Origin: Amoebophrya sp. A120
Taxonomy: Eukaryota; Protista; Dinoflagellata
Length of the DNA stretch: 35,189 nt
Assembly: GCA_905178155.1 (NCBI GenBank)
Contig: CAJINV010000041.1
Location: forward strand, 36,014-71,202
Direction: 5' to 3'
Shown here: positions 837-34,084 of the stretch, in pieces
How positions within the stretch are numbered: the first letter of the stretch is position 1
Layout: each line of letters begins with the position of its first letter
Notes under the pieces: model-generated
Database searches by the model: none
What the model saw: only the letters and a program-made list of their open reading frames with translations
Told to the model about the DNA's origin: nothing
Position numbers and translations under genes: made by a program

Positions 837-3101
837 TCGAGGCGAAAACCCGCGAGCGCGATGAAATATCAGGGTGAAATATTCCGTCTCCTCCCATTCT
901 CGACTGAAAGAGCAGGACACGTATCTTTGCACGAGTCGTCTTTGTCATGCACATCGAGCAGTACGCAAGTTTTACCTCTGACTCTAGGTGCCTTCCATTT
1001 TTGGCATGCCTCTTCTGCAACTGTAGGAAAAGGGCTGTTCCGGATGCAACACGGCATTGCATTGCAGTGCTTCGTAGTGAGTTCCACCCGCAAACACTTG
1101 CTTGCACCGGTACGGCATATCAGAGTTTTCTTCGGGTATTGGGGACGTTGGATTTTGCATCACGATACCTGCAGGTGGCTAAGCTGAAAGCCGAGCGCGA
1201 CTCACTTCTGAGCGACAATCTCCAGCTGCATATCCAGGAAAAACGTACGTATTACAACATAGGCTGATGTGATTGGCATTGTCGCTGCAGAGGTACTAAA
1301 CGACTGTATACGCCTGTCCATCTATCGAACATTGGCGATTGCATGCTCACTTATGCATGGATAGTGCTGAATACAGTGGATAGCGCTGAATTCAGACCTT
1401 ACGAAAATTTACTGCCATGGGAAAAGAATTGCATATCAGCACACCCACGGTCCGTACACTTTTTCGCAGGATAGTATAGGAAGCGTTGCATACCATGTTG
1501 AAAAATGGTCGCAGCATTCGAAATCTGTCATGCCGTAACGGACCAAGAAGAAAACTGCAATGCATTTCTGATGTCACAAAGCGTTCCGTGCTTCATCCTC
1601 GGATTTGTTCACAACGGGGTGTGCATACTTTTCTAGCTGGCAGTCTTTGTGTGCACATTGGTATGAAGAAGGACTCACTATGCTACGAGCACTTTTCTCA
1701 TCGATGCAGCAAGACCACAAAGAGCTCCTGAAAAAGCAGACCGATAAGGTGACCAGACTGGATACCCCGTGTAAAATTATTCCCGCTGTATGCATGAACA
1801 CCGTTCCTAATGCACAAGTTTCTCCATAAATGTAGGAGTTGCGCAAAAATTATTCATCAGGAAGCGCAATTTTTTTCACAAATCAGAGACGCGTGGAGTG
1901 ATGGTGGATAATTCTGATGCTGAGCTACAAGTCCTTGCGCAGTTGCTGCGAAGTTTGCTAGCTGTCCAGCCATATAACGTTTGGATATGGACCGGGAAAA
2001 GTTTTACACGGGATTCCAAAAACTGAGGTGACCGACCTGAATATCGAGGAAAAAAACAAACCCATCACCAACTTGCAATTGTATACATGAAGGGCAAGAA
2101 TGTGATGTCTGGCATGATCAAAACTCTTGCCTGTGATGCACCTGCATAACCGTCGAGGCAGGCTTGAAACTACGTGGCCGTCCTGCATTTTTGCGCAGCA
2201 CGACATGCATTTTTGTATCACAGATTCGTAAGACGGTGCTGGTGGTGTACTCTTTTCCTTCGATATTGCCCGGACAGGTGGAAGAGGCCCGGGAAAAGGC
2301 TGCGTCTCTGCAAAAACAAGTCGACGAGCTAGACATATGCTGCGCAAAAGTACATCCTCGTTCCAGATTCTTATCATACCTTCCGTGCCTTTCTTCTTGT
2401 TGGTTTTCAGTGCCTTTGCCTTTTTTTACCGCAGCGCTGTTCCTGCTCTCCGAGCGGAAAAAGTCCCCGTTTCCCAGGACAGGAACAAGCGGCTTCTTTT
2501 CGTCATTCGTCGTTGAATGTTGAGAAGCTTGCAATGACATCACAGGTCGGGGAACAATATAATGCATTTACAAACCGTTTTAAGTTTGGTATGGTGGATC
2601 CGTGGATCACGTGTAGTTTGTGCAGAATAAACAATGGAACTCACCAGTGCGAAGATGAACGAAGCCGCCGCTGAACTAGAGGTGAAGAACGTCCAACGCG
2701 AGCTGGAAAAGAAGGGCCAGCAGATCGCCGCGCTGCGCCAGGAGCTAGAGGAGCTGCGAGAGAAAATGACGGAAAAGGACAAAGAGCACGACAAATTCAT
2801 CGAACAACACAAGAACGCCCTCTACCAGAACGACGGGATCACGGACATCAAGCGGAAAAAGGACGTAAATGCGCTCCAGCGGTACATCATGAAGAAACGA
2901 GAGCTGGACGAGGAGGTCCGGAAGGCGCACGAGGAAATCATCAAGGGCTTGTGCGAGGAACTGCGGATGGCCCAAGAAGAGGAGGAAGAACAGCGGAATC
3001 AGAACAAGCGCAAGCAGATGGACGATTTGGAAGAGTTCGACAACGCGTACCAAGGAAAGCGGCAGAAGACGACGGCGCGGGAGGAGGAGCAGAATTCGTG
3101 A
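837..3101 (+). CDS. 3' part of a multi-exon coiled-coil protein of unknown function
   Basis: Heptad-like exons (IEAKTRERDE; VAKLKAERDSLLSDNLQL; EEGLTMLRALFSSMQQDHKELLKKQTDKVTRL; ETEVTDL; NGQVEEAREKAASLQKQVDELD) join in frame to the terminal exon 2635-3101 when TAT..ATA elements + 5 nt are removed; junctions near 1474-1663 unresolved; start not found. Confidence 0.65.
867..1167. mobile_element. degenerate introner-type intron
   Basis: tatcagggtgaaa...ttttgcatcacgata ends; DR decayed (tgaaa/cctgc) but removal of element+5 nt keeps coiled-coil frame. Confidence 0.5.
1231..1473. mobile_element. degenerate introner-type intron (family B-like)
   Basis: tatccaggaaaaacgtacg ... cgtacactttttcgcaggata imperfect inverted ends; DR decayed. 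Confidence 0.5.
1763..2015. mobile_element. introner-type intron
   Basis: TIR ccgtgtaaaattattcccg / cgggaaaagttttacacgg; +5 nt removal gives RLETEVTDL in frame. Confidence 0.7.
2042..2265. mobile_element. introner-type intron
   Basis: tatcgaggaaaa ... ttttccttcgata; flanks ctgaa/ttgcc; frame restored (DLNGQVEEAREK). Confidence 0.7.
2336..2629. mobile_element. introner-type intron
   Basis: tatgctgcgcaaaagtaca ... tgtagtttgtgcagaata; flanks agaca/aacaa; frame restored (ELDMELTSAK). Confidence 0.7.
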
Positions 3102-33400: not shown

Positions 33401-34084
33401 TGGTAAATCTGCAACACAAATCCTGAAGTTTTGGGAGTTCTTCATGATAATTTTCTATATGTAGCGCAGTGCTGCTTCGCAATGGAACAGCCGCATCACA
33501 ACAACGCCTGCTTACAGCATTACAAATCTCAGAACACAACTACAAATTCGATTCCTCTCATGCGGATGTGCATTCCAAATACCCCCGTAATTGCAAATCT
33601 GCATGACAACTATGGGGTGGGTACGTTTTTGCACAGTATAGCGCGGGTCCCATGTTTTTCGCCGAACAGTCACGGACCAGTCCCGAGCTGAAGGGAAATA
33701 ACAAATCCCTGTATCCTGAGGAAAAACGTACGCACCCCATCCCCAGCAGATCTGTCGTCAAATACCTCTGCATGCTCGGTAAGTATCGTCTCGCATGCAA
33801 AAATCAGGCTTCGAGATATCTCAATTTGATGTGACGTGCTTGCATACGCTTAAAACGACGTCGCAGCGAGTTCAGATTTGTCGGGTCAGACACCTCAAAC
33901 TTTGTAATTGTCTTATCCAGATTTTCTCTCTTGACTCTGAGGTCGTTGTGTTTTTGCCCAGGATACTCCGGCGGACATGGCTAACGAGCAGCATTTCTTC
34001 GTCCCGTCGCCGGATCTCAACCGTAAGCGATACGAGGTTCTCGATAAAAATCGAGACCAGAGTCAGGCGTGCGTGATCTTGTAG
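27433..34084 (+). CDS. kinesin-3 family motor (KLP-6/KIF28-like): motor domain, FHA domain, coiled coil, tail, C-terminal CaaX; 12 exons, 1186 aa
   Basis: Exons 27433-27493, 27755-27804, 28040-28744, 29033-29117, 29380-29447, 29732-30221, 30514-31411, 31703-31757, 32075-32911, 33227-33358, 33646-33711, 33971-34084 total 3561 nt with no internal stop; motifs [94 protein letters not shown]. Confidence 0.96.
27494..27749. mobile_element. kinesin intron 1, introner family A
   Basis: DR gaaac/gaagc; [11 protein letters not shown]. Confidence 0.93.
27805..28034. mobile_element. kinesin intron 2, introner (family C-related, diverged)
   Basis: perfect DR acgaa; tcccttcccc/ggggaggggga inverted ends; [10 protein letters not shown]. 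Confidence 0.88.
28745..29027. mobile_element. kinesin intron 3, introner family B
   Basis: tatcctgaggaaaaacgtccc ... gggacgttttcactcaggata; perfect DR cgaag; [16 protein letters not shown]. Confidence 0.96.
29118..29374. mobile_element. kinesin intron 4, introner family A
   Basis: near-perfect 28-bp TIR; perfect DR gggca; [10 protein letters not shown]. Confidence 0.96.
29448..29726. mobile_element. kinesin intron 5, introner family B
   Basis: atttgtaaaaacgtccccacacca / tggtgtggggacgtttttacaaat; perfect DR gtggc. Confidence 0.96.
30222..30508. mobile_element. kinesin intron 6, introner family B
   Basis: tatcctgagtaaaaacg ... cgtttttcctcaggata; DR ggaaa/ggata. Confidence 0.94.
31412..31697. 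mobile_element. kinesin intron 7, introner family B
   Basis: interior closely similar to intron 5; DR atgct/acgct; QRML|ALEEKL. Confidence 0.92.
31758..32069. mobile_element. kinesin intron 8, introner family C
   Basis: tatcaaaaggaaaaatcccccctccccata ... tatggggtggggggatttttcactttgata; perfect DR ttgaa. Confidence 0.96.
32912..33221. mobile_element. kinesin intron 9, introner family C
   Basis: interior closely similar to intron 8; perfect DR agcag. Confidence 0.95.
33359..33640. mobile_element. kinesin intron 10, introner family B in reverse orientation
   Basis: reverse complement of its right end (tatactgtgcaaaaacgtacccaccccatagttgtcatgcagatttgcaat) matches left ends of introns 3, 5, 6; DR gagcc/gcgcg (both encode Gly-Ala). 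Confidence 0.9.
33712..33965. mobile_element. kinesin intron 11, introner family B
   Basis: tatcctgaggaaaaacg ... tgtttttgcccaggata; DR ccctg/ctccg; removal gives last exon ending ACVIL-stop. Confidence 0.9.

Follow-up and report, generated by a model that had tools for sequence, protein, structure and literature searches.

Introner ends in Amoebophrya sp. A120: a two-block terminal motif and a single splicing register

In a 35,189-nt stretch of the genome of Amoebophrya sp. A120 (contig CAJINV010000041.1; hereafter the window), short elements sharing a bipartite end, TAT followed by seven bases and an A-tract, were noticed in a sequence-only reading. This motif is almost certainly the end sequence already published for the introner elements of A120, whose inverted repeats comprise TAT, seven less-conserved bases and at least three As (Farhat et al., 2021, PMC7789003). 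Given the A120 host, the published TAT/7/AAA motif and the 5-bp target site duplication (TSD) and TA/TA termini of introner family fam38, the finding is a rediscovery, and the motif as first noted adds nothing to the 2021 description. The elements have a 5-bp duplication, are spliced in a single register that takes one base ahead of TAT and four bases beyond ATA, keep two conserved blocks around a loose spacer and carry an internal repeat, TGT[ACG]ATGC. The register, the narrower core of the motif and the internal repeat were not met in the literature searched, where the figures of Farhat et al. (2021) could show part of them; as additions they are modest, and their basis is a single window, a single transcript sample and one assembly besides. 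Probably, these are A120 introner ends that are spliced at -1/+4 and read by a putative transposase as DNA and by the splicing machinery as RNA.

Introner elements in the window

Positions are numbered along the whole window, and motif positions are counted inward from TAT. Forty-one elements were catalogued, 154-312 nt long apart from one nested case of 778 nt, and they cover 31% of the window. Transcript contigs support 27 of them and repeat structure the other 14, most of which are also supported by reading-frame repair. The coordinates below are those of the element, TAT...ATA; for every element the intron extends from start-1 to end+4. Joints are written with a slash.

867..1167, +, old introner, duplication decayed; removal joins the reading frame
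1231..1473, +, candidate old introner; motif-guided end pairing
1491..1706, +, old introner; frame joined
1763..2015, +, introner with ends TAC/AAT and a spacer 7/7 complementary; frame joined into a coiled-coil open reading frame (ORF)
2042..2265, +, introner; frame joined
2336..2629, +, introner; frame joined
6439..6706, +, family A introner, duplication gtccc/atccc
8509..8766, +, introner
9024..9286, +, family A introner
10002..10228, +, introner, far end CAT
13953..14214, +, family A introner, perfect 5-bp duplication
14255..14507, +, family A introner
14901..15163, +, family A introner, orientation opposite to 18034
18034..18295, +, family A introner, duplication perfect; removal agrees with contig piece lengths and with the frame
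18342..18599, +, family A introner; contig piece lengths, loose end at 18602, frame
18706..18950, +, old introner; joint 18703/18954
19037..19814, +, 778-nt intron element with nested family A copy 19535-19799; exact joint 19035/19819
21217..21501, +, old introner, duplication decayed; exact joint 21215/21506
21531..21832, +, introner; joint 21527/21835
21890..22141, +, introner, followed by 10-nt micro-exon 22146-22155; joint 21889/22330 with 9 letters between
22157..22325, +, old introner; exact joint 22155/22330, from the micro-exon row
22695..22871, +, old introner; exact joint 22693/22876
22991..23205, +, family A introner; joint 22988/23209
23372..23525, +, GT-AG intron (23371-23529) in the same register, lacking an end stem; joint 23367/23527, duplex computation
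23694..23968, +, family A introner; joint 23690/23971
24040..24298, +, family A introner; joint 24038/24303
24411..24679, +, introner; joint 24408/24683
25226..25464, +, family A copy, code and duplication perfect, 3' repeat truncated
25485..25763, +, introner; joint 25483/25768
25876..26053, +, old intron, duplication gone; exact joint 25874/26058
27494..27749, +, family A introner; joint 27492/27754
27805..28034, +, introner, CACA replacing the A-tract, far end GAT, perfect duplication; joint 27799/28035
28745..29027, +, family B introner; contig piece lengths, frame
29118..29374, +, family A introner; contig piece lengths, frame
29448..29726, +, family B introner; contig piece lengths
30222..30508, +, family B introner; adjacent contig pieces 30220/30513
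31412..31697, +, family B introner, far end TGT; contig piece lengths
31758..32069, +, family C introner; contig piece lengths
32912..33221, +, family C introner; contig piece lengths
33359..33640, +, family B introner; contig piece lengths
33712..33965, +, introner, ends B-like; contig piece picks up again at 33970

A TAT...ATA stretch with a perfect 5-bp duplication, 26595-26944, lies off the catalogue downstream of the gene at 16671-26061; transcript contigs enter it as far as about 26700.

Splicing register

Joints across 18600-28200 were taken from contigs of four runs belonging to one sample of one study, the RNA nature of which is the tool's guess. The 17 joints tested comprise 15 rows (those listed, of 17) and two from contig pieces, one of them read and the other (33710/33970) deduced from lengths. 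When all offsets were tried, an intron starting 1 nt before TAT and ending 4 nt after ATA fitted 17/17 joints, and the next best offset fitted 8/17. All five joints that leave no room to slide are in this -1/+4 register, their duplications differing at 4 or 5 of the 5 bases. The piece spliced out equals the element plus exactly one copy of the duplication. Contigs of a DNA-like run continue unbroken across 19537-23026 and 25415-27901, introners included; with this run placed at 92%, other copies overwhelmed the signal, and the analysis therefore relied on its contig pieces alone. The raw RNA run X9 covers element-like ends only and not exons, and is silent on junctions.

The kinesin gene at 27433-34084 gives the same measure. 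Removal of its 11 elements with exactly 5 nt each leaves a frame of 1186 codons, whereas an extra 0, 3, 4 or 6 nt leaves only 24-74 codons. Its motor exon matches protein P0001 (Amoebophrya sp. A120, 1186 aa) at 100%, and the whole spliced model, if cut behind either base 4 or base 5 of the duplication, equals P0001 with no difference. The joints and this protein-identical model rule out a cut behind the first duplication base, for which acceptors would read ATA-G.

It is likely that the fixed -1/+4 register is general for the A120 genome. Introns in this register begin N-T and end with any two bases. The first intron base over the 41 elements is A in 16, G in 11, C in 10 and T in 4, and the last two bases are AG in 2/41, so that the elements as a whole do not show the GT-AG ends of U2 spliceosomal introns; an A stands at -7 from the 3' cut in 40/41. 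Only 1/17 joints has GT-AG ends. Such ends would arise where the target reads NNAGG, as in the one GT-AG case of the joints listed, 23371-23529, which is possibly an old introner turned canonical. The element at 27805 has CACA at the place of the A-tract and is spliced, according to its joint. Transcript contigs read into the copy at 25226-25464 from both sides; it has the weakest stem of family A (-15.3), and its read-through would shorten the host frame from 1569 to 1546 codons. This retention is a single hint that the end code alone is insufficient for splicing.

End motif and its core

The strict motif TAT-N7-AAAA occurs at 48 sites in the window (25 on the + strand, 23 on the - strand), whereas 100 dinucleotide shuffles averaged 3.87 sites and reached 10 at most, and 33 of the 48 are inward-facing ends of catalogued elements. 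With other spacer lengths (0-15 scanned) 1-11 sites per strand were found except for N8, the excess of which arises largely because the fifth A of N7 sites is counted again. The 15 strict sites off catalogued ends are at 835, 7173, 9303, 11274, 12209, 13723, 20800 and 23490 on the + strand and at 4262, 10659, 11817, 12162, 12572, 14429 and 14774 on the - strand; several of them are probably ends of further old introners.

The eight ends quoted in the sequence-only reading are correct in coordinates and letters, including CAAATGC and GCATTGC at 6439. Its proposal of one code at both termini stands as to a real and enriched motif, but was too strict: TAT-N7-AAAA is on 33/82 ends and at both ends in only 11/41 elements, the far ends of 1763 and 10002 reading AAT and CAT. 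The looser TAY-N7-AA is on 61/82 ends, and all 41 elements start with TA at the 5' end. The end core is TAY-N7-AA(A), looser than TAT-N7-AAAA.

Grouping on element interiors gave 23 groups, namely three families with 14, 5 and 2 members and 20 elements that stand alone (singletons); the elements at 29448 and 33359, which had been taken for extra families, are both members of family B. With one element per family, A occupies positions 11, 12, 13 and 14 in 36, 43, 33 and 36 of 46 ends (background 0.24), and outside the block it occupies position 10 in 9/46 and position 16 in 7/46. A fixed terminus with a fixed-position A core common to families, as had been proposed, is therefore kept when ancestry is controlled. 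Since 14/41 elements were chosen by motif- or inverted-repeat-guided scans and reading-frame repair, introns fixed by transcript joints alone (n=16) were counted separately, and A was found at position 12 in 19/22 singleton ends. The proposed 5-bp duplication was borne out: mean identity is 0.63 at k=5 and 0.22-0.33 at other k, and the duplication is perfect in 9/41 elements and has a single mismatch in 10/41. Its length is uniform and target preference is absent.

Second assembly and internal repeat

A scan with the family A end led to 132 loci (L001-L132, 569 kb) of a second assembly, whose exons differ from those of the window; family A is present there by construction, the remaining clusters are not. 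A motif-blind search, requiring a perfect 5-bp duplication and 21/30 complementary end bases, found 328 matches of at most 450 nt in the 569 kb, 305 of which start with TAT. Other duplication lengths gave 217, 28, 24 and 3 matches, in which TAT was not dominant except for 2/3 at k=8.

Among 312 second-assembly elements, two of the 11 end-clusters, with perfect duplications, lack the A-tract, which is therefore common but not universal as first supposed. Eight young copies with the end TAT-GGAAGTG-TCAGG form one such family, and the 1104-nt element L011:505-1608 has TAT termini, ends 28/30 complementary and a perfect 5-bp duplication without an A-tract. More widespread is TGT[ACG]ATGC, with 81 copies in 9.7 kb of element interiors versus 7 in 24.2 kb (24,232 nt) outside them in the window, and with a presence in 308/312 second-assembly elements. 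Each of the 11 end-clusters there has it, even where the A-tract is missing. The repeat faces inward, its first copy lying mostly 33-45 nt from each end. In the second assembly, 894 copies lie in the 484,582 nt outside called elements, probably within uncalled ones. Transposon ends typically carry repeated subterminal binding sites.

The families, described earlier as unrelated, are thus linked by a common 8-mer, and all 312 elements fall into one network at 40-nt local alignments. Both facts would suit common descent alone, in which the shared letters are remnants of one ancestral element without any present reader. This explanation is very improbable and is largely refuted by the position-specific mismatch profile given below: positions 4-7 have diverged between the two ends of one young copy and positions 1-3 and 11-13 have not. 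Moreover, the splice cut is placed relative to the motif.

Spacer and pairing between ends

Mismatch between the two ends was measured in 192 young elements from the second assembly that had been oriented; it is 1-5% at positions 1-3, 27-58% at 4-7, 11-21% at 8-10, 2-7% at 11-13 and 9-20% at 14-27. Low mismatch at 1-3 and 11-13 around a loose spacer fits sequence reading of two blocks. The earlier view that the spacer varies freely is right in that it is more variable between ends than the flanking repeat, chiefly at 4-7, but its bases are restricted at two positions: position 4 is A in 1/233 ends on each side, and position 5 is T in 1/233 and 0/233.

Spacers were also said to be often not complementary. 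The mismatch at 6439 is as quoted and, within family A, complementarity to the own partner shows no excess (4.46 versus 4.47 with another copy); across families, however, own ends match above permuted ones, 3.96/7 complementary versus 2.36 with one element per family (p<1e-4) and 3.18 versus 2.32 for 11 joint-fixed singletons (p=0.015).

The near-invariant A core at 11-13 beside a diverging 4-7, the symmetry of young elements relative to transcription, the uniform 5-bp duplication without target preference and the listing of A120 fam38 as Ginger with "5-bp TSD, TA/TA Termini" (Gozashti et al., 2025, PMC12130899) would all be expected if the two blocks were a DNA signal, resembling a recombination signal sequence, for one transposase common to the families, with splicing left to the hairpin alone. 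Such a reading is nevertheless unlikely, for the A-tract is missing from young families (the eight TAT-GGAAGTG-TCAGG copies, L011:505-1608 and, in the window, 27805), the internal 8-mer is the more universal candidate binding site, and part of the motif outlives the traces of mobility, as seen in old introns.

Old introns

Six transcript-proven introns with at least 3 duplication mismatches were treated as old. All six keep TAY at the 5' end, A(-7) at the 3' end and U at motif positions 12 and 13 of the 3' end, and they do so with decayed duplications and internal repeats. Full AAAA remains at 0/6 5' ends and 2/6 3' ends, and A12 at 3/6 5' ends, compared with 19/19 transcript 5' ends of young elements in the window. 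The duplex of their own ends is -26.9 kcal/mol versus -18.9 kcal/mol when permuted (p=0.002). Internal repeat copies number 3.11 per element in 19 young and 0.58 in 12 old elements, a loss that is expected of any 8-mer with age and is in itself no evidence of function. TA is found at 41 of 41 5' ends versus 33 of 41 3' ends in the window (p=0.005), and at 27 versus 22 of 27 among transcript-supported elements (p=0.051).

The motif could alternatively be a splicing signal only, playing no role in mobility and selected by a convergent filter under which inverted-repeat elements in exons would persist only when their ends chance to be TAY-N7-AA. Its retention in old introns, a register measured from TAT/ATA and an A-tract that some mobile families dispense with agree with this, but the 5' A-tract, kept while elements are young and lost when they are old, points to constraint during mobility, and the duplication length and internal repeat common to all families indicate one mobilising system. 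A role in splicing only is thus quite improbable, though not to the degree of descent alone.

Proposed mechanism

The preferred reading, in which transposition and splicing use the same ends, would run as follows. A DDE transposase or integrase-like protein, supplied in trans from elsewhere, would bind the internal repeats as well as the termini and the A core, and this putative transposase would make a 5-bp staggered cut. Symmetric ends would serve either insertion orientation, providing N-U-A-Y as the 5' signal, which resembles GUA donors in its U at +2 and A at +3, and U..U-N8-A-U-A-N4 as the 3' signal. In the transcript the inverted repeats may pair and bring both splice signals together, and the cut would be measured from the stem rather than from GT/AG by a machinery without detectable U1. 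Branching would perhaps occur at the A at -7, a candidate branch point offered tentatively. Ageing elements would lose their duplication, their internal repeats and much of the A-tract at the 5' end, and would keep TAY, the stem and the U and A of the 3' end. On balance, the ends seem to be read at both the DNA and the RNA level. The sequence-only reading had supposed that a protein reads terminus, spacer and A-tract; two-block reading fits this, but it was framed at the DNA level only, and the joints reveal that the same ends also set the splice cut.

Combined, these steps would amount to a genome-wide code without GT/AG, N-UAY...UU-N8-AUA-NNNN, in which a stem stands in for U1 and a ruler extends from the branch A at -7, the whole taken from one transposon system binding TGT[ACG]ATGC, with insertions born removable either way. 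This combined proposal is plausible but falls short of being probable.

Several observations weigh against the preferred reading. No transposase was found in the ORFs scanned in the window and the 132 loci. The asymmetry of TA between 5' and 3' ends was not reproduced in the second assembly, where only 14/249 elements are old. G-U pairs are not above A-C mismatches (17 versus 23 in the window spacer, 82 versus 99 in the second assembly), so that selection on RNA pairing lacks a direct sign, and the surviving stem could be leftover transposon symmetry. Intron 19036-19818 (783 nt) is spliced without a predicted end-to-end stem; a nested family A copy (19535-19799) sits about 10 nt from its 3' end, and the intron may be two introns with a skipped exon. 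The retention at 25226 is one case, neighbouring an exon of 15 nt, and one of the two unlisted rows could hold its joint. Finally, the transcript evidence consists of assembled contigs from one sample whose RNA nature is guessed.

As for the transposase, no autonomous element with the motif at its ends was seen in the window or in the 569 kb of the second assembly. Long TAT-ended elements of the 132 loci (457-1104 nt) have longest frames of 85-238 codons, and the 238-codon frame of L011 has no Pfam match. No transposase, integrase or reverse transcriptase Pfam family was detected in 127/136 locus ORFs of at least 230 codons, the L011 frame and 45/97 window ORFs of at least 110 codons. Viral contigs gave no match to the family A end.

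Comparison with known systems

A120 introners have been described as about 240 nt long, with inverted repeats of 8-20 nt or longer, without an internal transposase, and with direct repeats of 3-5 nt, given as 5 bp in the legend of S19 (Farhat et al., 2021). Hairpin-assisted splicing was proposed and U1 was undetected in A120; according to the legend of Fig. 3, the splice position relative to the hairpin is variable and the border unknown. The repeat positions reported for A120, four bases upstream and within two downstream, may describe part of the -1/+4 register. The present elements agree with these introners in the TAT/7/at least 3 A end, the 3-5 nt border repeat, the repeated families and removal without GT-AG; in the part of the text of Farhat et al. 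(2021) that was available, TGT[ACG]ATGC and age-dependent decay do not appear. The introner families of A120 are mostly terminal inverted repeat DNA elements of unknown superfamily, and among 40/58 A120 rows of supplementary file 8 fam38 is given a 5-bp TSD, TA/TA termini and integrase-like homology (Gozashti et al., 2025). Donors in that study are enriched for GT and AT, in likeness to the N-T start predicted by the register, whereas its automated calls have mixed duplication lengths (2-6) and mixed splice-site origins, with no single register or end code in the rows listed.

The elements are short, have inverted ends and a target duplication and lack coding capacity, as do MITEs (miniature transposable elements with inverted repeats). 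Nonconventional introns of Euglena likewise lack GT/AG and have a short paired motif, 5'-N3CDG...CH'G N5-6/R, whose distance from each exon border is fixed, as was shown genetically (Nomura et al., 2025, PMC12501133). Motif, offsets and lineage are different there, an A/U tract is absent from what is described, and membership of A120 is not claimed. Introns of Fritillaria borealis are MITE-derived, with inverted repeats, target duplications and an adapted spliceosome, but have conserved terminal dinucleotides AG-AC and AG-AT, unlike A120, where the first base and the last four come from the target and are free (PMC11282704; bioRxiv 10.1101/2025.08.15.670264). A120 introners resemble them in working and are not a member of that group.

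An analogy with RAG/Transib signals had been drawn loosely in the sequence-only reading. It survives for the 5-bp duplication and for the layout of terminal block, spacer and A-rich block; Transib and V(D)J signals themselves have a CACAATG heptamer, a 12 or 23 bp spacer and the nonamer AAAAAAATC, in place of TAT, 7 nt and AAA in A120 (Kapitonov and Jurka, 2005, PMC1131882). The heptamer starting with CAC is at variance with the TA start of 41/41 5' ends, and the spacer is 7 at both ends with no peak at 12 among spacers 0-15, the A block lying at 11-15. No RAG-like transposase was seen among the ORFs scanned. With regard to Ginger2/Tdd, TDD-4 and TDD-5 make 5-bp duplications, and an integrase-related transposase is the type suggested for fam38; Ginger termini, however, are TGTNR with AT-rich or CCGG targets (Bao et al., 2010, PMC2836005), while the elements here end in TAT and show no preference for a target. 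TGT is found at 1/82 ends in the window.

Host genes and other features

Two genes that carry catalogued introns are listed here.

27433..34084, +, kinesin-3 type gene (Kinesin, FHA and KIF1B domains) for a protein of 1186 aa; each of its 11 introns is an introner
16671..26061, +, host gene, family unassigned, with a 1569-codon frame after removal of 17 introns in the -1/+4 register

The larger exons of the gene at 16671-26061 were scanned and have no Pfam match. Its micro-exon at 22146-22155 (10 nt), between two introners, is present in all four transcript runs. Coding repeats of 60 nt (16967-17806) and 57 nt (5727-5905), rich in Gln/Ser/Gly, are found in paralogous genes, and paralogous C-terminal segments with the end RKRRHT(V/I)TG lie at about 15540-15580 and 25850-25875. 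In addition, a GC-rich tandem array at 7774-8248 consists of a 19-nt unit repeated about 25 times around a GGATCC palindrome, and two interstitial units of TTTAGGG, which has been reported as the A120 telomere repeat, are located at 10429-10442.

Implications

In A120, tens of thousands of introns are removed without GT-AG and apparently without U1, and a fixed register makes their removal more directly testable. The -1/+4 rule would allow re-annotation of ambiguous intron borders in this genome. Together, TGT[ACG]ATGC and the register give a probe for the missing transposase.

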